Source: a virus
Direction: 5' to 3' (one strand)
Virus record (IMG/VR): IMGVR_UViG_3300037445_000039
Location: 1 to 40,943 of that record
Length of the DNA: 40,943 bases
The stretch's first letter is position 1. Every line of letters starts with the position of its first letter. The notes beneath the pieces are model-generated. The model was not told the origin of the DNA. It searched no databases and worked only from the letters and a program-made list of their open reading frames with translations. A program made the position numbers and the translations under genes. This document shows positions 788-16,150 of this stretch, one piece after another.

Positions 788-1864
788 CTACGAGGCTTTC
801 CGGCGAGTGCCCCGTTTCGGTGCCCCGCTTCGCTGCGCGGCGGCCAGCTTGGGCAGGGCCTTGCTAATGTGCTGCGAGATGGCGCCCATGATGTAGCGCC
901 ACGACGTGCGCGGATCGCGATGATCCAGCAATTCTTGCGCAGCGCGCTGCTCGCTGACGCGATAAGCCTCCGTCGCAAACGAGTGGCGAAGATCGTACGG
1001 CCGTCCGATCTTGACGCCTGCGGCCTGACAGGCCAGAATCCACGCTTTCCGTAGCGAGCTGGTGGAGAAGGTCCCCGTGGCCTTCGCGGCCAGCCACGCC
1101 TTGATCGCGTCCACACCCGCCGGCGTCAGGGGATACCAGCGCCCTTTCGTCCCGCCGCCTTTCCGTCGCCCCTGCACGAAGACTCGGCGCCGGTGGAGCT
1201 CGACGTGGCCTTGGTCGGGGTCGATGCGCATGATCTGCGCCGGCGGAATGCCGGTGTAGGCGATGAGCCCGAGTCGCGCCGGACTCTTCTTGCCGCGGAT
1301 CTTGGAGAGGATCCGTCGGATGGTCGCGTAGGTGTAGCCGCGCGGTTGTGGGTCAGGCTCACGGAATTTTTTGATGGCGCGGACGGGATTTTCCGCGGTC
1401 GGTCCGTCTAACGTCGTGTAGAGGTGGAGGATGGCCGTGCGCCGATGGTTCACGGTGCTGGCGGCGTAGGGCTTTTTCTCCTTGCCCCGCGGTTCCGTCG
1501 CCCAGCGGTGCAGGACGGCGGCGATCTCGGCCCCGGTCACCGTGTGGCGCCGACGGTGCCCAAACTCTGCGCTCCACAAGGCGATGTCCGCGGCGCGCAT
1601 CACGTAGCTGGGCATCGCCTTCACCGCCTCGAGGTACCGGCGCGCGTCATCCGCGAAGGTGCCTGGCGTGGTCGTGCGCGCCTTGTGCCGTCGCCGCAGT
1701 TCGACCCGCCGCTCCTCCTGCCACGCCTTCATCGCCTTCACGTCGGCGGTCAGCGGATAGCGTTTCTCCTCGCGGTGCTTCGCGATTTCCACGCGGACGG
1801 CGTAGCCCAGATCGTCGCGGAAGATCCCCCGCGCGACGCGGTGGCGGCGACTCTGGCGCGGCAT
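788..1864 (-). CDS. int: Tyrosine recombinase / phage integrase
   Basis: 358 aa. C-terminal RPYDLRHSFAT...LLDHRDPRTSWRY gives the R, HxxR and Y catalytic signature. Adjacent to the tRNA-fragment attP. Confidence 0.95.
   Translation of the reverse strand: MPRQSRRHRVARGIFRDDLGYAVRVEIAKHREEKRYPLTADVKAMKAWQEERRVELRRRHKARTTTPGTFADDARRYLEAVKAMPSYVMRAADIALWSAEFGHRRRHTVTGAEIAAVLHRWATEPRGKEKKPYAASTVNHRRTAILHLYTTLDGPTAENPVRAIKKFREPDPQPRGYTYATIRRILSKIRGKKSPARLGLIAYTGIPPAQIMRIDPDQGHVELHRRRVFVQGRRKGGGTKGRWYPLTPAGVDAIKAWLAAKATGTFSTSSLRKAWILACQAAGVKIGRPYDLRHSFATEAYRVSEQRAAQELLDHRDPRTSWRYIMGAISQHISKALPKLAAAQRSGAPKRGTRRKAS
807..827 (+). promoter_or_regulatory. attP right arm: two more GTGCCCCG repeats (807, 820) inside the 3' end of int
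   Basis: GTGCCCCGTTTCG at 807 and GGTGCCCCGCTTCGCTG at 819, in the same orientation as the left-arm copies. Confidence 0.6.
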
Positions 1865-2488: not shown

Positions 2489-3046
2489 TCACGCTTTTGG
2501 GCCGGTTCCCGTACCCTTGGCCTCCCGTTCTGCGATACCTGCTGCAAAGTTGACGCAATGCACGGCGAAATACTCCCGCCGATGCTCCGGACAAAGCTTC
2601 CACGCGCCACGTATCAGGTCGAAAATATCTGGTTCCCCCACGCGCGCCTCCTGCCCTGCCGGCGTGCTGGATTGAGTAGCCCCGGATGTAGCCGATAACG
2701 GGCTGGCGATGTGCACGCCCGCGGTGACCTCAGGCACCGACACTTTTCCACCGCTCCGCTCGGCGACCAGGAATTGTGCGAGTTCTCCCACGGGCACGTC
2801 ATAAATTTGCGCCAATCCCCACAACACGCCTGCGTCCGGCGCCATGACCGTGCCCTTCTCGTACTCCGACAGGGTTGAGCGATCGAGCTGCAGCCCATAT
2901 TTCACCGCCAAGCGATTCGCAACGTGCTCCTGGCTCCGCTTCTTGTTCCCAATCTTCACGGCCTCTCGAAGCGCTTTGAGCCGGGCACCAAAACGGGGAA
3001 CGACCACGGGACGGGGCGCGCCTGAATTTTTTCGACGGCTAACCAT
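2489..3046 (-). CDS. CI-like repressor: XRE-family HTH with a non-S24 C-terminal domain
   Basis: 185 aa. SQEHVANRLAVKYGLQLDRSTLSEYEKG is an HTH_3-type motif. Divergent from the Cro-like gene. No Ala-Gly or Ser..Lys peptidase motifs were seen. Confidence 0.85.
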   Translation of the reverse strand: MVSRRKNSGAPRPVVVPRFGARLKALREAVKIGNKKRSQEHVANRLAVKYGLQLDRSTLSEYEKGTVMAPDAGVLWGLAQIYDVPVGELAQFLVAERSGGKVSVPEVTAGVHIASPLSATSGATQSSTPAGQEARVGEPDIFDLIRGAWKLCPEHRREYFAVHCVNFAAGIAEREAKGTGTGPKA

Positions 3047-3145: not shown

Positions 3146-3388
3146 ATGCCACGAAACACTCACCCGCGACCGCGCTACAACGCGCGTCTCCTTGCCGAAG
3201 ACATGGGGGCGCGCGGCTGGCAAGCCAAAGACATCGCGCGCATCGCTAACGTGTCCTCCCGGCAGGTTTCCCGTTTTCTCTGCGGCGATGTGCAGACCGC
3301 AAAGATGGCGAGGGTGCTTGCCGGCGCGCTGGGCCGGTCCCCGGCCCGCTACTTGATCCGCACGGTTCAGCCGGAGCCAGTTCGATGA
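3146..3388 (+). CDS. Cro-like HTH regulator
   Basis: 80 aa. WQAKDIARIANVSSRQVSRFLCGD is an HTH motif. First gene of the rightward operon. Confidence 0.8.
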   Translation: MPRNTHPRPRYNARLLAEDMGARGWQAKDIARIANVSSRQVSRFLCGDVQTAKMARVLAGALGRSPARYLIRTVQPEPVR

Positions 3389-3828
3389 GCGCCCTTCCTA
3401 ATTCGAGCAACAGGATGCTGCGGGCTGACTCATCAACGCCACGCAATAACGTCGGGAATACAGGGTCAATCGTGATCAAGACGCATGAGGATGAGTCCCC
3501 GCTCGGTCAATTGGATCTCGCCTCGGCCATCTCGATCGCGCTCGATCGGGCGGGTATCTCGCACAAGGCGGCGGCGCTCACGATGGGCATCGACCCCGCG
3601 CAGTGGTCGCGGCAGTTGCATGGCGACGGGCATATCAGCTTTCAGCGTCTGCAGAAGTTGTCGGCGGAGTTCTGGCGTGAGTTCCTCCCGTTACTCGCAA
3701 GCCCCTTGCAACTGACGATGAGCCACCAGGATTTCGCCGACTTCGCGATGTTGAAGATCGCCGCGCTCGTGCAGGAGATCGGCACCTACGTCATTCAGGT
3801 GCGGGCGCAGCAAAGGCGGGTGGCATGA
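3385..3828 (+). CDS. HTH protein, possibly a CII-like early regulator
   Basis: 147 aa. ISHKAAALTMGIDPAQWSRQLHG is an HTH motif. ATGA coupling at both ends. The exact start is uncertain. Confidence 0.65.
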   Translation: MSALPNSSNRMLRADSSTPRNNVGNTGSIVIKTHEDESPLGQLDLASAISIALDRAGISHKAAALTMGIDPAQWSRQLHGDGHISFQRLQKLSAEFWREFLPLLASPLQLTMSHQDFADFAMLKIAALVQEIGTYVIQVRAQQRRVA

Positions 3829-4535
3829 GCGAGCTGCGCTGTTCTGGATGCGACATGCCATTAGGCCGAAACGCCAATCGTTTTTGTCGCGCGTGTTGGA
3901 AGCGACACGTTGCTTCTGCCGCAACTGGCGGCTTGACGGTCGAGCGCACCTGTGAACGTTGCAGTGCTCCCTTCATGGTGAAGCCGTATCGGATACCGCG
4001 CGGCGAGGCCAAGTATTGCAGCGTGAATTGCTATTGGATGGCGCTGCGCGAAGTGTCCGCAGCGGTAGTGATTGCCCAGCGGGCATGCACGCGGTGCGGT
4101 GTAACCAAATCCGTCGCCGACTTTTACAGCACGTACTCAAAGCTACGGATCAAGCGGCCACTTTCTTGGTGCAAGGCCTGCGTGTGCGCATTCCGGCGTG
4201 TCCGGCAGCGCGAACTGTCTTTGCCGGCTGATATTCATGATCGGCTTCGTGCGGGGATGTGTGTTTCAGAGACGGGTTGTTGGGAGTGGCTCGGCGTCAT
4301 CCATCCACATGGGTATGGATCGATCACTGTCATAGGCCGAGTATCACTTGTTCATCGTGTGTCCTACGCGGCGTTCATCGGTCCGTTGATTCCAGGCCTG
4401 CAGGTGGATCACTTATGCGCGAACAGACGTTGCATCAACCCGAATCATCTGGAGCAAGTGACGGCGGCAATCAACACCAGGAGAGCGGTGGCGCGCCGGC
4501 GAAATGCCGCTGCTCTGAGCATTCAGTGCTCATGA
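3825..4535 (+). CDS. HNH endonuclease with N-terminal CxxC zinc ribbons
   Basis: 236 aa. GCWEWLG...HGYG...LVHRVSY...VDHLCANRRCINPNHLEQVT..N is an HNH_3-type signature. Confidence 0.85.
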   Translation: MSELRCSGCDMPLGRNANRFCRACWKRHVASAATGGLTVERTCERCSAPFMVKPYRIPRGEAKYCSVNCYWMALREVSAAVVIAQRACTRCGVTKSVADFYSTYSKLRIKRPLSWCKACVCAFRRVRQRELSLPADIHDRLRAGMCVSETGCWEWLGVIHPHGYGSITVIGRVSLVHRVSYAAFIGPLIPGLQVDHLCANRRCINPNHLEQVTAAINTRRAVARRRNAAALSIQCS

Positions 4536-6181: not shown

Positions 6182-6382
6182 TTCATGTCTGCGGCAGCGT
6201 GGACGGTGACACGCCTGCGTTTCTGCTCACGGACGTTGGGTTGTGCCGGGTCATGACCGGAGCGAGCAACAGCAACGGACGCAGCTTCTGGCAATCGGAA
6301 TCTGACAACGCGTGAGGCGGTCCGATCGTCACGGGAGAGCCGGGTCAGTACCGGCCCGCAGACTTCAGATAGGAGCATGCAC

Positions 6383-7354
6383 ATGGAAGCGGTTCGAGAC
6401 ATCAGCACGCGCGCGCAGCAGACCGGCCTCGTGCGCGCCCTGCCGCAGCCGGAGGCGCTACAGCCGGCCGCGCCGAGCGCCGTGCAGTTCACCGAAGAGC
6501 AGGTCGCGCTCATCAAGCGAACGATCGCCAAGGGCGCGACGGACGACGAGTTCAAGTTGTTTCTGTGGCAGTGCAAGCGCACGCGACTGGACCCATTCGC
6601 GCGTCAGATTTTCGCGGTGAAAAGATGGGACCGCGAGCAGAGCCGCGAGGTGATGCAGACACAGATCAGCATCGATGGCCTCCGTCTTGTGGCCGAGCGC
6701 ACCGGCGAGTATCGCGGCCAGACGCCGGCCCAGTGGTGCGGCCCCGATGGCGCATGGACCGATGTGTGGCTCAACAAAGAGCCGCCGACGGCCGCGCGCA
6801 TCGGCGTCCACCGTCAGGGCTTCGTCGAGCCGGTGTATGCGGTGGCGCGCTACGACGCCTACGTGCAGACGAAGAAGGGCGGCGAGCCCAACTCGATGTG
6901 GTCGAAGATGCCGGACAACCAGCTCGCCAAATGCGCCGAGGCGCTAGCGCTGCGCAAGGCGTTCCCGCAGGAACTGAGCGGCCTCTACACCGGCGACGAG
7001 ATGGCACAGGCGGGCTCCGATCTCGTGAACACCAACACCGGCGAAGTGGTGAACGATGACGGTGCGCTGCGCGTCGTGCACGTCGAGCCCTTCACCGGCA
7101 AGACGAAAACCGGCCGCGACTTTTCGTGCTGGGATGTCGCTTTCAGCGACGGGCGCACCGCGCGCACGTTCTCCCGCACGATGGGCGAGGACGCGATGGC
7201 CTGCTGCGAGGATCGAACGCCCGTCGAGGCCGTAACGGCGACCGCGAAGAGCGGCAAGTTCCTCGACCTTATGGAGCTGCATGCGGTGCTCGATGTCGCG
7301 CCGGAGCCGGGATCATTCGATGGCCCGCAGGACGGAGAGGAGCAGCCGTTCTAA
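6383..7354 (+). CDS. bet: Single-strand annealing recombinase, Bet/RecT family
   Basis: [19 protein letters not shown]...[36 protein letters not shown] is a Bet-type signature. AGGAG lies 7 nt upstream of the ATG at 6383; the alternative ATG at 6377 is only 1 nt from it. There is a C-terminal extension of about 100 aa. Confidence 0.9.
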
Positions 7355-11114: not shown

Positions 11115-11624
11115 ATGGCGGAGAACATCGAGCACGTCGTGAATCGAAACGGGTGGCCTGCGGGGCCGTGGGATGCGGAGCCTGAGAATCGCGTGGAGTG
11201 GCGCCACGAGGGCGTGCCTTGCCTGTTGGTACGCCATCCGCACCATGGCCACTGGTGCGGGTATGCCGCCGTTGAGCCGGGGCATCCGTGGCACGGCAAG
11301 GGCTACGACGATGTGCCGGTCGATGTCCACGGTGGTCTGACGTATGCGGACAAGTGCGGTGCCATTCCGGCGGTCTGCCATCTGCCCCAGCCCGGCGAGC
11401 CGGATGATGTGTGGTGGCTCGGGTTTGACTGCGCCCATGCGTACGACCTGTCGCCCGGCACGCAGCGGTATGGCGCTGTGTCAGACGTCTATCGTGACCG
11501 GCGCTATGTGCAGCAGCAGACGGAGGCGCTCGCCGACCAAGTGATTGCGATGCGCACGCTCGCCGCTGCGTCAATTGACACTGATCGTGGAGAGGTGCAG
11601 ACTACAGCGGTCCGGCTTGAGTGA
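11115..11624 (+). CDS. Conserved phage protein (WCGYAAV..HPWHG...VHGGLTY...WWLGFDCAH motifs), function unknown
   Basis: 169 aa. AGGAG upstream. Confidence 0.75.
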   Translation: MAENIEHVVNRNGWPAGPWDAEPENRVEWRHEGVPCLLVRHPHHGHWCGYAAVEPGHPWHGKGYDDVPVDVHGGLTYADKCGAIPAVCHLPQPGEPDDVWWLGFDCAHAYDLSPGTQRYGAVSDVYRDRRYVQQQTEALADQVIAMRTLAAASIDTDRGEVQTTAVRLE

Positions 11625-12085
11625 GCCGTGCCGCGCCCTGCGTTGTGTAGCGGGGTCGCGTCCCGCATCCGCATCTCCACGAGGCAATGCGGGTGCGTTG
11701 AAGCGGCTGGAGTGTCGTGCGGATGGCGTTTTTGCCCTCAGGGTGACTCGCCGGGGCCGCAAGGACGCCAGCCACTTGAGCGCACCTGTAGGCTCCTGCG
11801 GGCTACACGGTCCCCGCGCGCGTCGCTTCGGTTCCCCGCGCTGCGGGCCGCACGGACCACACCGATCAGCTGAGACAGACCTCATGAGTGCGCACTTAGA
11901 TCACATTGGACGGCGGCTCCTGCGCTCCGCCCGTAAAGACCGGCAGTGTTGGTGCCGACGTCATCCACTGAGGCGGCGCCCACCACTCAGCAGGTTCTAC
12001 GTGCGCTGGCAAACTCATGGAAACATCGCAACAGTGGCAATAGCAGAGGGTTATGTCACTCGGAGGGAACCTACGGAGGGTGGAC

Positions 12086-12289
12086 ATGCCTGAGTCTTCT
12101 CCCAACACGGCCCGTTCTACAGGAGCGCAGGCCACAGACCGCACGTATACGGCTGACGAGGTGCGCGAACTGATGGCCGCTGCGTGGTTCGAAGGGCGCG
12201 CGGCCGCGGCTGACATCGGGGAGCTGCTTCGCCGGTGTGACCGCGATGTGGATGGCATCCTCGCCGCGCACGAGGGCGACCGTGGCTGA
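12086..12289 (+). CDS. Hypothetical protein (67 aa), first gene after the second large gap
   Basis: GGAGGG lies 6 nt upstream of the ATG at 12086. Confidence 0.65.
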   Translation: MPESSPNTARSTGAQATDRTYTADEVRELMAAAWFEGRAAAADIGELLRRCDRDVDGILAAHEGDRG

Positions 12290-12749
12290 CGACCAGCCCC
12301 GCATCGAACGCGCCAAGCCGGTCGGCCGCCCGCCCCTCACCCTCCCCGACCGCCTCACCGTCCACGCGCTCCACGCCCGCGGCTACAGCGATGCGCAGAT
12401 CGCTCGCGCCCTCAACCTCCAGCCGTCCCAGTGCCGTAGCGCCCTGGACGACGCCCGCGCCGTGCTCGAAGCCAGCGCCGTCGCCCTCGTCACCGACTAC
12501 CTCACCGCCTCCGATATCGCCGCCAGAAAGGGCGACCACCGCCCCGCCCGCGATATGCTCGACCGCCTCCACGTCACCGAGCCTACCCCCGTCGAACAGA
12601 CCACCGTGGGCATCGCCGTCCAAATCAGCGGCTTCACCCTGCCAGGCCTCCCCGTGCAGCTCCAGAACAGCCAGCTGCCGCAGGGCGCACCAGCCCCAGC
12701 CATCGACGTGGTCGCAACCAACGCGCGCAGTACGGAGACCAACGAATGA
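12282..12749 (+). CDS. HTH protein, candidate terminase small subunit (or late regulator)
   Basis: GTG start overlapping the upstream stop codon. GRPPLTLPDRLTVHALHARGYSDAQIARALN is an HTH motif. ...ARKGDHRPARDMLDRL resembles TerS helical cores. Confidence 0.6.
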   Translation: MADDQPRIERAKPVGRPPLTLPDRLTVHALHARGYSDAQIARALNLQPSQCRSALDDARAVLEASAVALVTDYLTASDIAARKGDHRPARDMLDRLHVTEPTPVEQTTVGIAVQISGFTLPGLPVQLQNSQLPQGAPAPAIDVVATNARSTETNE

Positions 12750-13105
12750 AGCGACCGCGAACGCTGAGCGCACGGTGGTCCAAAGCACGCGAGCATGGTG
12801 TCAGCCGCATCAATGGTCAACAAGGCGACATCCTTTACGAATGGGGCGATGGCGTGGGTCATGCCGATGGTCACCTTCTGCACTACGCCCTTGGCTGTGA
12901 ACGCATGCGGCTCGCCTCCAGCGCCGAACAGGCCGCTTCGGGACTCGTATGGGACTTCGCCCCGAGCTTCTTGCAGGAGCTGCACGACCGCGGCTATGAC
13001 CTCACCACGCTCAGGTTCAGCATCCAGAAGCGGCAGTCTGTAACTGCAACAGATACTGATTCAAGGCCCGCCTCCCCGAGCGCTCCCCATGCCCACTCCG
13101 ACTAA
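12746..13105 (+). CDS. Hypothetical protein (119 aa), reduced third-position GC
   Basis: ATGA coupling. GGAGA lies 8 nt upstream. GC3 is about 68% against about 90% in core genes. Confidence 0.6.
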   Translation: MKRPRTLSARWSKAREHGVSRINGQQGDILYEWGDGVGHADGHLLHYALGCERMRLASSAEQAASGLVWDFAPSFLQELHDRGYDLTTLRFSIQKRQSVTATDTDSRPASPSAPHAHSD

Positions 13106-13334
13106 CTGCCGTCGCGTTACAGTCTGGCGGCCTGTCGTGACCTCTGTGCGCAGGGCTGAGCCACGGCTGGTAATCGAGGAGCCGCTGGACGATAGCCCGA
13201 CACCTTCGCCAGCGAAACCGCAGGCTCCAAGCGAAACACAGCCGGAACAGGCCGAATCACCCCTCGGGTCGCATAAGACACGTTATGTTAACTCACAAGA
13301 TGCAGGCAAGTGCTGATGCTGCAACAGCTTAGCG

Positions 13335-13363
13335 ATGACACATACACCAACGCTGGTTATGTT
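13335..13363 (+). promoter_or_regulatory. Candidate sigma70-type promoter: ATGACA, 17-nt spacer, TATGTT
   Basis: Lies in a low-GC (about 47%) island. The -10 element sits inside the repeated motif GGTTATGTTAACT. Confidence 0.4.
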
Positions 13364-13464
13364 AACTGTGTCGGTGGTTCGACAATGCGCAGAGATGCGC
13401 GGGAGTGGCGAGCCCCGATCGCCCAGCGCCAGCCGAAGGGGCCAGGCCGGCGCGCGACCCGGAC

Positions 13465-13515
13465 CAGGGGCCCCGGCCCTCGAGCACGGGCCCGGAGTGC
13501 CTGTAATTTTTTGTT
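13465..13515 (+). terminator. Candidate intrinsic terminator: long imperfect GC hairpin followed by TAATTTTTTGTT
   Basis: CAGG..CCGGCCC / GGGCCCGG..CCTG pair with about 11 bp, followed by a run of six T at 13507-13512. Confidence 0.45.
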
Positions 13516-13556
13516 CTACACAGAGACAGTCAGCTAGCTGAGCTATAGGAGAGCCC

Positions 13557-14030
13557 ATGATTCGTATCGCCCCGAGTCCGACTGCCGATACCCGCACCTG
13601 TGATTTCACGAAGGTCACGAAGGAAACGCTGCTGGCAAGTTCTGAGCAGCACATCCGTGATGTCCGTGCCGCGCTGCAGTGGTTCGGCGCGGAACTGCAC
13701 AAGGCGGCTAGGAATCACGATCCCGACAAGATCACGGACATCGACGGCTTCCACCGCGACTTTGTGACGGGGTTCACGCGCACGGAATGGTGGGACGCGC
13801 ATCGTAAGCTGAACCGCCATCATCTGCAGCAGGGGGATGGCATCCCGGCTGATGTAAACCTCATCGACGTGCTCGACTTCATCGCCGACTGTGTGATGGC
13901 GGGCATGGCGCGCAGCGGCAGCGTCTACCCGCTTGCGCTCCCGCCCGAGTTGCTGGAGCGCGCGTTCCAGAACACCGTTGAAATGCTCAAGGCGCAGGTG
14001 GTGGTGGAACGTGAGTCGGTCACGGCCTGA
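13557..14030 (+). CDS. Conserved phage protein with an HDxxK motif (DUF5662-like, recalled from memory)
   Basis: 157 aa. AGGAG upstream. NHDPDKI...W.AHRKLNRHH...LIDVLDFIADCV. Confidence 0.75.
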   Translation: MIRIAPSPTADTRTCDFTKVTKETLLASSEQHIRDVRAALQWFGAELHKAARNHDPDKITDIDGFHRDFVTGFTRTEWWDAHRKLNRHHLQQGDGIPADVNLIDVLDFIADCVMAGMARSGSVYPLALPPELLERAFQNTVEMLKAQVVVERESVTA

Positions 14031-14296
14031 TGCCCCTGACGCCTGGGCGGGTGGATCGGCGGGTGGCGGTGACGCGGAGTGTGGCGCTGGAGCCGGAGGC
14101 GGGGCGCGAGGTGGTGGCGACGCGGACGGGGCTGGTGCTGGTGACGCGGGAGGCGCGGTGGACGTGGTATCGGTGGATGCTGGCGGGGGAGCTGTGGTCG
14201 GTGGTGGTGGAGCGGCCGCGGACGCAGGCGCAGGCGCAGCGGGAGGGGGCGCGGCTGTATCGGGCGGCCCGGGAGCGGTGGAGACAACGCCGGTAG
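14030..14296 (+). CDS. Hypothetical Arg/Val/Trp-rich protein in an extremely G-skewed segment
   Basis: ATGA coupling. The alternative frames give only Gly/Ala or Pro low-complexity products. Confidence 0.5.
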   Translation: MPLTPGRVDRRVAVTRSVALEPEAGREVVATRTGLVLVTREARWTWYRWMLAGELWSVVVERPRTQAQAQREGARLYRAARERWRQRR

Positions 14297-14301
14297 GGGC
14301 C

Positions 14302-14424
14302 GTGTTTCGCGTGGGGGCGCAAACCTGTGCGGGCTGCGCGAGCGAGGAGATCGTCCTTGGCTTCGTCGCTGGCCGCTGGCTGTGCGCGTGGTGCCGAGTG
14401 GCTGAACGGATGAGGAAGCGATGA
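14302..14424 (+). CDS. Possible 40-aa zinc-ribbon micro-protein
   Basis: GTG start after AGGGG. CAGC...CAWC pattern. Its stop codon overlaps the next ATG (ATGA). Confidence 0.4.
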   Translation: MFRVGAQTCAGCASEEIVLGFVAGRWLCAWCRVAERMRKR

Positions 14425-14675
14425 CTGACGAGGAGCTGCAGGCGATTCGGGCACGGCATCAGCATGACCACGTCGAGGATGGTGGGGTCGCCTGTCCGTG
14501 GTGCGAGCAGGACGTGCCCGCGCTCCTCGCCGAAGTCGAACGGCTCAAGGCCGCGCTGACGACGGCCTACAACGAAGGCTGGGAATCCTGCTGCGATCGT
14601 GCGCTCGCGACGATGCCGGAACGCGAAGAAGCGCGACGGGACGCGACGATCACCGCAATTCTGAACGGCTCATGA
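14421..14675 (+). CDS. Hypothetical protein (84 aa) with CPWC and a coiled coil
   Basis: GAGGAA upstream. ATGA-coupled to TerL. Confidence 0.65.
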   Translation: MTDEELQAIRARHQHDHVEDGGVACPWCEQDVPALLAEVERLKAALTTAYNEGWESCCDRALATMPEREEARRDATITAILNGS

Positions 14676-16150
14676 GCACGGGATTCCTCGAGGGCGGCGA
14701 GGTGCGCATCAACGGCAAGGTCGTCTACCAGCCGTTCGCGAAGCAGGTCGCCTATCACAACAGCCCGGCGCTGTATCCGCTCTACGGCGGCTCGAAGGGC
14801 TGCGGCAAGTCCAAGGCGCTCCGCTGGGATCACTACCTGCCGTCGCTCGCCGTCCCCGGGATGAAGTCGCTCATCCTGCGGCGCAAGTTGGTGGACCTGC
14901 AGCGCTCACATCTCCGATTCGTCCCTGAGGAGGCGCAGCTCGTCGGCGCGCGCTGGGTCCCGTCCGATGTCGGTGCCGGCGTGCTCTACTTCCCCAACAA
15001 AGCGCTCATCGAATTCGGCCACTGCCAGCACGAGCAGGACATCGAGCAGTATCTGTCGGCGGAGTACGACCGCGAATCGTTCGACGAAATCGTGACCTTC
15101 ACCGAGTATCAATACCTGATGATCGGCTCGTGCTGCCGCACGACCATCCCGGGCCTCATCCCGCGGATCGGCGGCGCCACGAATCCCGGCGGCAAGGCCG
15201 CGCTCTGGGTCAAGCGCCGGTGGATCACGAAGGACCTGACGGTCGATGACGACGAGGACTATCGGCCCGAGGATTACCACTACGTGCCGGCGCTGCCGAC
15301 CGACAACCCGCACCTGAACTGGGCGCAGTACATGCGCCAGTTGAACCGCCTGCCGCCCGAAATGCGCCGCGCCTACCGCGATGGCGATTGGGACATTTTC
15401 ATCGGCCAATTCTTCCCCGAGTTCCGCCGCAACCCGCGCCCCGACAAGGACGGCGTGCTGCAGCCGGCGCACGTCAGGGAATTCGACTACGCGCCCAAGG
15501 ACTGGCCGCGCTACGGCGGCCTCGACTGGGGCTACAGCAGCGAGGGCGCCTATCTTTGGGTCGTGCAGCACCCCGACGGGTTCCTGGAAGTCGAGGACGA
15601 ATACATCTTCAACGGTCCGCGCCGCGACAAGCAGATCGCCAAGGAGGTCGCGCAGGAGATCGTCCGCCGCAACGTGGCGCGCGGCATCCGTGTCCGCCGC
15701 ACCTACGCCGATCCGTCGATGGACGAGAAGCGTGGCCACGAGACGCACGAAAGCTACTTCGACACGTTCCGCAAGCACGGTGTCCCGCTCGAACGCGGCG
15801 ACAATGATCGCGTGCAGGGCCTCGCCCGCATGCGCGCGTGGCTGCGGAATCGTCCCGATGGCCAGCCGTTCTTGCGCGTGCATCCACGGTGCACGTACCT
15901 GATTCGCACCTTCGGCGAGGTCGTGATGGATGAACAGGAACCGGAAGACATGGACAGTGACGGTCCCGATCACGCGCTCGATGCGCTCCGCTACGTGGTG
16001 GCCGCGCGGCCGCAAGCGCCGGGGGCGCCGGCGCCGGTCGCCTACCCCGCGGGATCGGCCGGCGCGCTCAAGCAGCAGATCATGGCCGCCGAACACGGCC
16101 GGCGCGTGCTGGGGAGCGAGTCGGTTCGCCGGCGGCCGTACGCGTACTGA
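14672..16150 (+). CDS. terL: Terminase large subunit
   Basis: 492 aa from MSTGFLEGG. Walker A YGGSKGCGKSK. A nuclease-type acidic C-terminal half. Followed by the portal gene. Confidence 0.9.
   Translation: MSTGFLEGGEVRINGKVVYQPFAKQVAYHNSPALYPLYGGSKGCGKSKALRWDHYLPSLAVPGMKSLILRRKLVDLQRSHLRFVPEEAQLVGARWVPSDVGAGVLYFPNKALIEFGHCQHEQDIEQYLSAEYDRESFDEIVTFTEYQYLMIGSCCRTTIPGLIPRIGGATNPGGKAALWVKRRWITKDLTVDDDEDYRPEDYHYVPALPTDNPHLNWAQYMRQLNRLPPEMRRAYRDGDWDIFIGQFFPEFRRNPRPDKDGVLQPAHVREFDYAPKDWPRYGGLDWGYSSEGAYLWVVQHPDGFLEVEDEYIFNGPRRDKQIAKEVAQEIVRRNVARGIRVRRTYADPSMDEKRGHETHESYFDTFRKHGVPLERGDNDRVQGLARMRAWLRNRPDGQPFLRVHPRCTYLIRTFGEVVMDEQEPEDMDSDGPDHALDALRYVVAARPQAPGAPAPVAYPAGSAGALKQQIMAAEHGRRVLGSESVRRRPYAY

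Follow-up and report, generated by a model that had tools for sequence, protein, structure and literature searches.

The switch to late transcription is known in detail for few phage lineages, namely those controlled by Q, AlpA/GafZ, RinA, Mu C and P2 Ogr, the last two being further precedents of late activators. In lambdoid phages, Q, PR′ and tR′ lie between the early or nin-type genes and the lysis and packaging genes. Lambda-type late control combines the Q gene, the promoter PR′ with its qut site, the terminator tR′ and the 6S RNA, and Stx phages have the StxS RNA (PMC7547250, PMC6266700). AlpA of Pseudomonas aeruginosa (PMC7969949) and GafZ/GafY of the Caulobacter gene transfer agent (PMC11150451) are DNA-binding processive antiterminators unrelated to Q, and in both systems intrinsic terminators lie just upstream of the target genes. 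RinA-type late activators of Gram-positive temperate phages are encoded just upstream of the packaging operon (PMC3152322). Here we describe a region of similar position in viral DNA from IMG/VR (record IMGVR_UViG_3300037445_000039, positions 1 to 40,943; this whole stretch of 40,943 nt is called the window). Positions 13194-13515 of the window form a conserved, single-copy element of ~320 nt, located between the gene for a helix-turn-helix (HTH) protein (12282..12749) and the late genes.

Our preferred reading, held tentatively, is that this element, together with the leader that continues to 13556, is a control region that acts in cis on the late operon under the direction of the adjacent HTH protein. 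That operon would most likely comprise the genes of a lambdoid-style temperate phage for lysis, packaging, head and tail. The element is compact, sharply delimited and strictly paired with one unannotated HTH family, in phages without a cultured relative. If regulator and target are as proposed, they would make a two-part system (~320 bp plus a 155-aa protein) testable in a reporter, and would help to annotate the early/late boundary in similar metagenomic phages.

A conserved element at the head of the late genes

Relatives were gathered from contigs carrying homologues of the HTH protein, from one IMG/VR contig and by a pattern scan of metagenomes, in which the pattern of the 5′ block of the element (block A) gave 113 matches, four of them real (L056, L060, L061 and L068). 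The resulting comparison set holds 15 distinct phage genomes, the window and 14 others. Alignment and profile located a stretch equivalent to the element in all 15, with a length of 302-322 nt in 12 of the 13 full-length copies and 361 nt in the remaining one (L038). When a profile of the element was run with nhmmer over ~290 collected loci, matches were restricted to these genomes, and block A was located in this way only in loci bearing the HTH gene. Likewise, a homologue of the HTH gene was present in every element locus having enough upstream sequence, so that the two co-occur strictly.

The original prediction had placed the region at the head of the packaging and head gene block, and this position holds throughout the relatives: the element is always upstream of late genes, which comprise cargo or lysis genes, a conserved 88-aa gene, the terminase large subunit (TerL) and the portal. 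The leanest genomes show the arrangement most plainly. Only 59 nt (L044) or ~70 nt (L290) separate the HTH gene from the element there, and the late genes are, in L044, a 119-aa gene, a Hydrolase_2 endolysin-like gene, a member of the 88-aa family, TerL and the portal and, in L290, the 88-aa gene, TerL and the portal. Other genomes have two cargo slots, one on each side of the element. Judged from these alignments, the element itself is a core, single-copy and syntenic part of the phage group and not cargo.

The conserved unit exceeds the stretch noted first, a low-GC island at 13270-13380 predicted to have about 47% GC. We measured 46.8% for the island, compared with 65.5% for the whole window, a temperate-phage genome, and the element begins upstream of it. 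Two near-invariant blocks stand out, block A at the 5′ end and the GC-rich block B, the latter being 100% identical to L033 over ~70 nt and near-invariant in 14 genomes.

At its 3′ end the element closes with a terminator-like signal. In the window a GC-rich hairpin (13465-13503, −23.9 kcal/mol) stands directly 5′ of a U-tract on the transcribed strand, as in an intrinsic (Rho-independent) terminator, the 3-nt spacer to the six U residues being slightly atypical. Seven + strand runs of at least five T residues occur in the window, and 13507-13512 is the only one that is both intergenic and behind a strong hairpin. In genomes of ~65% GC, AATTTTT is kept in 12 of 13 aligned copies and also in L290 (13 of 14 full-length copies), and L044 has GATTTTTT. 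A strong hairpin ending 3-4 nt before the T-run is present in the window and in L033, L037, L038, L039, L056 and L060; in L041 and L061 a separate GC hairpin is followed by one of 4 bp (CCUG/CAGG), and in L044 the hairpin and U-run keep their place but the stem is unrelated in sequence (GUUGUCG..CGACAAC). The 3′ half of the long hairpin (~13480-13503) varies across genomes.

From the T-run to the first late start codon there are 17-21 nt in L038, L039, L040, L041 and L044, 32-33 nt in L033 and L052, and 44 nt in the window, and the first downstream gene has its own Shine-Dalgarno sequence. Since this leaves no room for an independent promoter after the T-run, the late genes are read either through it or from a promoter overlapping it. 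A terminator-like signal that late transcription has to pass, as first proposed, is a conserved feature of the group. The leader that follows is identical in L056 and L060 and near-identical in L068, where it precedes a different gene.

Features of the window discussed in the text, in order of position
Feature	Position	Strand	Remarks
Integrase-like open reading frame (ORF)	788..1864	-	
CI-like repressor	2489..3046	-	
Cro-like HTH gene	3385..3828	+	
RecT	6377..7354	+	followed by exonuclease and further + strand genes
Blocks shared with L036	10475-10514, 10868-10917, 11861-11888, 12277-12314, 13083-13106, 13196-13237, 14511-14551		
HTH DNA-binding protein gene, conserved	12282..12749	+	155 aa; presumed cognate factor of the element
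Block 0, junction block	13060..13106	+	end of variable upstream gene and ATG of ORF X
ORF X, doubtful small gene	13089..13316	+	75 aa; conserved ends, non-homologous core
Block A, near-invariant 5′ block	13194..13293	+	CGACACCTTCGCC, palindrome TTCGCC-AGCGAA, AAGCGAAA, GGGTCnnATAAG, first GTTA-N3-TAAC site
Palindromic site 1, GTTATGTTAAC	13282..13292	.	TTAnGTnAACT in relatives
Short motifs	around 13308 and 13329		near-invariant in alignment
Hairpin just 3′ of ORF X stop	13312..13333	+	GCUGA-U-GCUG-CAA-CAGC-UUAGC
Sigma-70-like promoter match	13335..13363	+	ATGACA-17-TATGTT; promoter scan
Palindromic site 2, GTTATGTTAAC	13356..13366	.	overlaps candidate -10 in window
Inverted repeat TGTCG-N6-CGACA	13369..13384	.	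unique in window
GAGA-loop hairpin (13386-13400) and second hairpin (13407-13423)	13386..13423	+	lineage-specific linker
Block B, near-invariant GC-rich block	13435..13479	+	GAAGGGGCCAGGCCGGCGCGCGACCCGGACCAGGGGCCCCGGCCC
Terminator-like signal	13465..13512	+	compound GC hairpin 13465-13503, then UAA and U6 (13507-13512), TAATTTTTTG
Short leader	13513..13556	+	Shine-Dalgarno AGGAG of first late gene
First gene after element	13557..14030	+	157 aa; weak DUF5662
Conserved late gene	14030..14296	+	88 aa; always precedes TerL
TerL	14672..16150	+	phrog_979 and phrog_2; portal-like gene beyond

The genome is organized as integrase, CI-like repressor, Cro-like gene, RecT, exonuclease, RusA (in relatives), HTH gene, element and late genes, and every gene from the Cro-like gene onward is on the + strand. 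Its TerL is ~32% identical to that of the nearest cultured phages (Arthrobacter, Pseudomonas and others) and at most ~33% identical to any TerL of the phage collection. A DNA similarity search against 50,697 phage records returned zero matches, and a scan of GTDB genomes with TerL peptides and the block B pattern returned no true match; the sole nhmmer match among the GTDB scans (L174) was in a coding region and was rejected as chance. An HNH endonuclease gene (3825-4535) is located in the early region directly after the Cro-like gene, away from the terminase. On the - strand, 727-796 is a full-length tRNA according to Rfam (40.6 bits) and no tRNA according to ARAGORN; it adjoins the integrase-like ORF and may therefore be a tRNA-derived attP core.

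The HTH protein and a proposed late control

We propose that transcription from the early region would meet the hairpin and U-tract directly before the first late gene, and that this signal would insulate the late genes pending the action of a phage factor. The HTH protein is our candidate for that role. It may bind the invariant blocks and palindromes of the element and make RNA polymerase terminator-resistant, as lambda Q, AlpA and GafZ do; alternatively, it might activate a weak promoter overlapping the T-run in the manner of RinA. Wherever the element contains a promoter, in the window perhaps at 13335-13363, a short terminated RNA comparable to lambda 6S or StxS would then arise as a by-product. 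Termination at the hairpin and T-run, binding of the HTH protein to the element and the direction of regulation are thus parts of the scheme that we infer. Of the two readings offered by the original prediction, a phage small RNA (sRNA) or a leader whose terminator must be overridden, the leader is the better one.

Two early ORFs had been suggested as regulators. One of them, the HTH gene, is conserved and is the obvious candidate; the other, the 119-aa ORF 12746..13105, lies between that gene and the element and is not conserved, relatives having other small genes there. This ORF has a GC content at third codon positions (GC3) of 0.675 and no homologue in IMG/VR, and from its sequence context is cargo of the first slot. 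Upstream of the HTH gene, 300-700 nt are without called genes in L037, L039, L040, L041, L043 and L290; the window counterpart of this gene-free stretch (~11624-12282) contains a 78-aa ORF, 12053..12289 (phrog_20928).

The palindromes of the element would suit a DNA-binding factor. GTTATGTTAAC is an imperfect palindrome, GTTA-N3-TAAC, and the repeat noticed earlier, GTTATGTTAACT, occurs exactly twice in the window, at 13282 and 13356, 74 bp apart; GTTANNNTAAC, with at most one mismatch, has no further occurrence in the 40.9-kb window. The centre of site 2 is flipped (GTTAACATAAC) in L033, L056, L068 and L290 and reads GTTAACATAAT in L061, and the site is degenerate in L038, L043 and L044 and shifted by ~20 nt in L060. 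Such flipping and displacement fit a protein-binding site and not a -10 element, and the repeat looks like one. In TGTCG-N6-CGACA, the half-sites are near-invariant around a variable centre, compensatory changes are absent, and T/A variation in the 5′ arm is unmatched in the 3′ arm. Together with TTCGCC-AGCGAA and the two copies of GTTA-N3-TAAC, this motif is found nowhere else in the window, and the palindromic motifs would all fit protein-binding sites. A long-range CCGACAC/GTGTCGG pairing suggested by RNAalifold was rejected, its central pair being mismatched in several genomes (four by our reading), and these sequences are more likely repeated half-sites. A comparison of the HTH recognition helix with the palindrome variants gave only a partial pattern (QVR with GTTAGGTCAAC in two of three genomes) that was not usable.

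The HTH protein has weak matches to HTH_38/HTH_23 over residues 19-55, and 19 homologues at 50-94% identity. In its AlphaFold2 model the HTH is followed by a long helix (48-82), a further helix (87-95) and a tail that is disordered; the GFTLPGLP segment, which is conserved, is strand-like. Fold searches with it returned generic HTH matches only, and an exhaustive profile search found ~290 clusters (at 50% identity) of similar unannotated proteins in public data.

Several observations weigh against late control by this protein. It matches no known antiterminator or late-activator family: it is not of the Q family, the Q-like phrog_79 being matched by only two of 20 homologues at E 0.013, and neither it nor 106 family members match AlpA (Phage_AlpA) or GafZ in Pfam, PHROG or NCBIfam. 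Its layout, with an N-terminal HTH, long helices and GFTLPGLP, might equally suit a small terminase (TerS); cultured phages with the nearest TerL have an HTH protein at the TerS position, and TerS could be recognised in no other gene of the late block. L040, L041, L052, L061, L068 and L290 have only a weak or offset hairpin before the T-run, and in L041 and L044 a terminator scanner reports nothing on the + strand. Covariation in the terminator helix equals that of shuffles and was seen for no other helix, in a set of 14-15 sequences, several of them close, that gives low power. Finally, the element has no conserved sigma-70 promoter that could be the source of the late transcripts. The HTH protein could thus be a late regulator or a small terminase.

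If it is the latter, the element would be a pac region on which TerS assembles and where the first cut by TerL begins a headful series, the two invariant blocks, ~240 bp apart, flanking a variable palindrome-bearing centre and the T-run and hairpin being incidental or a separate insulator. We consider this unlikely, even if the strict pairing of gene and element, which lie close together, the nearly constant length of the element and the TerS-like size and layout of the protein all agree with it. The nearest cultured TerL relatives point the same way: their HTH gene is directly upstream of TerL, and their records begin there or one gene before, a start that presumably marks circularly permuted, headful genomes by SEA-PHAGES convention. 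The HTH protein itself has no match to TerS families, and among the 106 family members one matches a TerS PHROG and three match DUF5681. However, the profile and fold matches are generic, and hhalign of the HTH protein to the Arthrobacter phage HTH proteins was not significant. Known pac sites are within terS or at its 5′ end (P22, SPP1, P1), whereas the element is downstream of the candidate terS. In addition, the T-run signal, exchangeable cargo and, in L044, lysis genes intervene between the HTH gene and TerL, which is unusual for terS; a distant family member (P0030) is encoded upstream of RecT-type early genes, far from any TerL; and contigs of the L044 family cross the element unbroken. 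If the element is indeed a pac site, it would locate the origin of packaging and show which protein is the small terminase in this group.

Packaging may also involve the 88-aa gene, which may encode the small terminase or hold the pac site. Its DNA is 94-96% identical to L033, L037 and L038, in which TerL is only ~76-89% identical, and it has a strong G skew, with GGCGGGTGG occurring twice (14046 and 14058). The AlphaFold2 model of its product is of low confidence and gave no fold match; the gene is a real one, for a conserved beta-plus-helix protein.

A different use of the same HTH protein, which we regard as doubtful, is an activator-dependent late promoter overlapping the T-run. TAATTT would then serve as a poor -10, the HTH protein would bind block B, centred ~50-60 bp upstream of the putative start, and the hairpin would only terminate incoming early transcription. 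This would agree with the invariance of block B, with the free and uncompensated variation of the segment between it and the T-run, and with the preservation of AATTTTT even in copies with a poor hairpin; the interval of 17-44 nt before the start codon would be a short leader with its Shine-Dalgarno sequence. RinA-type activators offer a precedent (PMC3152322). On the other hand, xAATTT matches TATAAT at only two or three of six positions and has no -35 element, and the run resembles a U-tract, one strand of a stem ending 3-4 nt before it in most members.

Cargo, RNA structure and coding potential

Late control by the HTH protein may also be set against a passive boundary that has no dedicated regulator, in which the blocks would be recombination linkers of a mosaic group flanking the two cargo slots and the T-run a leaky terminator. 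Variable genes are indeed inserted on both sides of the element. The first gene after it has 63-79% identical genes in 31 IMG/VR contigs with unrelated upstream DNA, and other genes take its place in relatives; since those contigs lack the element, this 157-aa gene is exchangeable cargo. Blocks of 24-50 bp with 80-98% identity, including block 0 and part of block A, recur in different order in L036 (IMGVR_UViG_3300045391_001905) and look like junction sequences of a mosaic phage group. Block 0 (TTCAAGGCCCGCC..CCCCATGCCCAC.CCGACTAAC) is common to the window, L037, L038, L040, L043 and L052, and part of it is present in L036 in another context. In addition, four Logan contigs (L042, L043, L053 and L054) end within ~10 nt of each other inside block B, at the equivalent of ~13468-13477, as would be expected if co-occurring phages share this sequence. 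We rejected a cos end at this place: sibling samples carry two phage variants with the same block, and L044-family contigs run through. The ends probably reflect de Bruijn graph branching at the shared sequence and not a physical DNA end. However, linkers do not explain a unit of ~300 nt with nearly constant length, whose block order is invariant and which stays linked to one protein family even in genomes without cargo (L044, L290). A passive boundary is thus quite improbable.

Prospects are poorer still for a free-standing phage sRNA gene with a ~140-nt transcript, from ~13370 to 13512, acting in trans, which we consider very unlikely. The idea arose from the window, where a promoter match (ATGACA-17-TATGTT, with its candidate -10 at site 2) and the terminator-like signal ~100-140 nt downstream are correctly spaced, as they also are in L037; moreover, StxS, a functional sRNA, is the PR′-tR′ transcript of Stx phages (PMC7547250). 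The match is present as predicted, and is the sole one within 12000-15000, but it did not hold as a conserved feature. Only the window and L037 have it complete; L052 and L061 have a weak version, ten of 14 genomes lack it, and such matches are as frequent as by chance (four in the window compared with ~4.5 expected from shuffles). Because the promoter is not conserved, the predicted transcript has no conserved start. No conserved sigma-70 promoter was found anywhere in the element, for a phage whose host may have promoter rules of its own. Furthermore, conserved blocks reach well upstream of the putative start, and 13386-13430 is the least conserved segment of the putative RNA. An sRNA moron fits poorly also because the element is core, single-copy and syntenic and not cargo.

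The fold of the region gave no support for a highly structured RNA. Rfam has no family in the element, the best sub-threshold matches scoring 12-20 bits compared with gathering scores of 40-100, and the fold energy is about that of shuffled sequences (z +0.4 to -0.9 overall, 0 to -0.9 for the element and 0 to +0.4 for the putative transcript). RNAalifold proposed 25 pairs, nearly all invariant, with a covariation term of +0.94 and one compensatory pair. All hairpins originally listed, with GAGA loop, second stem and long GC stem before the T-run, are where they had been placed. However, the first two are common only to the window and L061; their sequence differs in other genomes, and the linker that contains them is missing from L044 and gains ~45 nt in L038 and L043. 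The hairpin at 13312-13333 re-forms from different sequences in most members, with weak support (z of about -1 to -2 in nine of 15). Block B can form a stem-loop, GGGGCC/GGCCCC plus CCGG/CCGG, whose pairing is kept in 92.5% of cells through invariance only. For an antiterminator helix between GGGGCC (13438-43) and GGCCCC (13469-74), pair counts equal those of shuffles. We also rejected a riboswitch-like antiterminator/terminator switch: the two conformers are near-isoenergetic in the window (-35.0 and -33.8 kcal/mol), the terminator is the minimum-free-energy fold in the closest relatives, and covariation is absent.

ORF X resembles a gene in some respects. Its start, MPTPTNC, and its Pro-rich tail, PTPSPAKPQAPSE, recur, and the frame is open in most relatives, where cores differ wholly among genomes and some carry CxxCG zinc ribbons. 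Counterparts are found in L037, L038, L056, L060, L061, L036 and P0020-P0022, open despite a composition that is not gene-like. However, its GC3 is 0.58, compared with 0.78-0.92 in real genes of this genome, block A has no codon-phase periodicity (0.47, 0.50 and 0.57 bits), and, owing to a 1-nt indel, homologous bases of the conserved 3′ part are read in two frames. Only three homologues have been called among 5.8 billion proteins. These properties mean that constraint acts on nucleotides, in agreement with the non-coding character first assigned to the stretch, and they speak against ORF X as a translated and conserved gene in spite of its conserved ends. Since ORF X ends at 13316, 13317-13556 would be non-coding even if it were translated.

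The ORFs crossing the stretch had been given a GC3 near 59% or Arg/Pro/Gly-rich products; we measured a GC3 of 0.58-0.67 for 13310..13537 and 13335..13541 and of 0.85 for 13405..13506. The latter frame runs through block B (PARDPDQGPRP...), and in the core of that block (13447-13476; columns 307-336 of alignment A3) four or five of five or six substitutions fall on one codon phase; we rejected it, as in four of 13 genomes this frame has no start codon before it reaches block B. A protein-coding origin of the conservation, whether through ORF X or through 13405..13506 and its longer versions, is therefore the least credible of the explanations.

Comparison with known late switches

The closest parallel for a late-operon control region is lambda Q/PR′/tR′. 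In both, the regulator gene stands last in the early region and is followed directly by a non-coding stretch that lies between early (nin-type) genes and lysis/packaging genes, and a terminator-like signal closes this stretch just before the latter. Cargo follows the signal here as stx genes follow tR′. Unlike lambda, the HTH protein is not of the Q family and the element has no conserved constitutive promoter; the quality of the terminator is uneven, being canonical in the window and six relatives. The element is also large, ~320 nt with invariant blocks upstream of any candidate start, whereas the lambda 6S RNA is ~194 nt and the PR′-tR′ unit is shorter than the element.

AlpA and GafZ share with the proposed system a non-Q regulator that recognises DNA sites in the promoter region and lets polymerase bypass terminators before lysis or particle genes. 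However, no sequence or fold relationship to them was found for the HTH protein, and their binding element is between the -35 and -10 of a defined promoter, which is not defined here. RinA, and also Mu C and P2 Ogr, resemble it in having an activator gene immediately upstream of the promoter region for packaging and morphogenesis, but homology was not detected, a terminator-like signal separates regulator gene and operon, and the motif is single-copy. Headful pac regions (SPP1 pacL-pacC-pacR, P1 pac) are similar in spanning a few hundred bp with conserved flanks, repeated or palindromic motifs and an HTH small protein; here, by contrast, the element is downstream of the candidate gene, and a terminator-like signal and cargo or lysis genes precede TerL. 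The stem-loop-capable block B, immediately upstream of the terminator on the transcribed strand, recalls HK022 put and lambda nut RNA, although it has no sequence similarity to them and its stem-loop lacks covariation support.

The element thus resembles the Q, AlpA, GafZ and RinA systems, yet its HTH protein is outside their protein families and the conserved promoter is missing. It is possible, if speculative, that the 12282..12749 family is a new class of HTH late antiterminator that loads on polymerase at the element, or that the block B stem-loop acts in cis like put or nut RNA, either of which would make this a previously undescribed late switch in widespread uncultured soil phages. AlpA and GafZ illustrate that new families can fill the role of Q.

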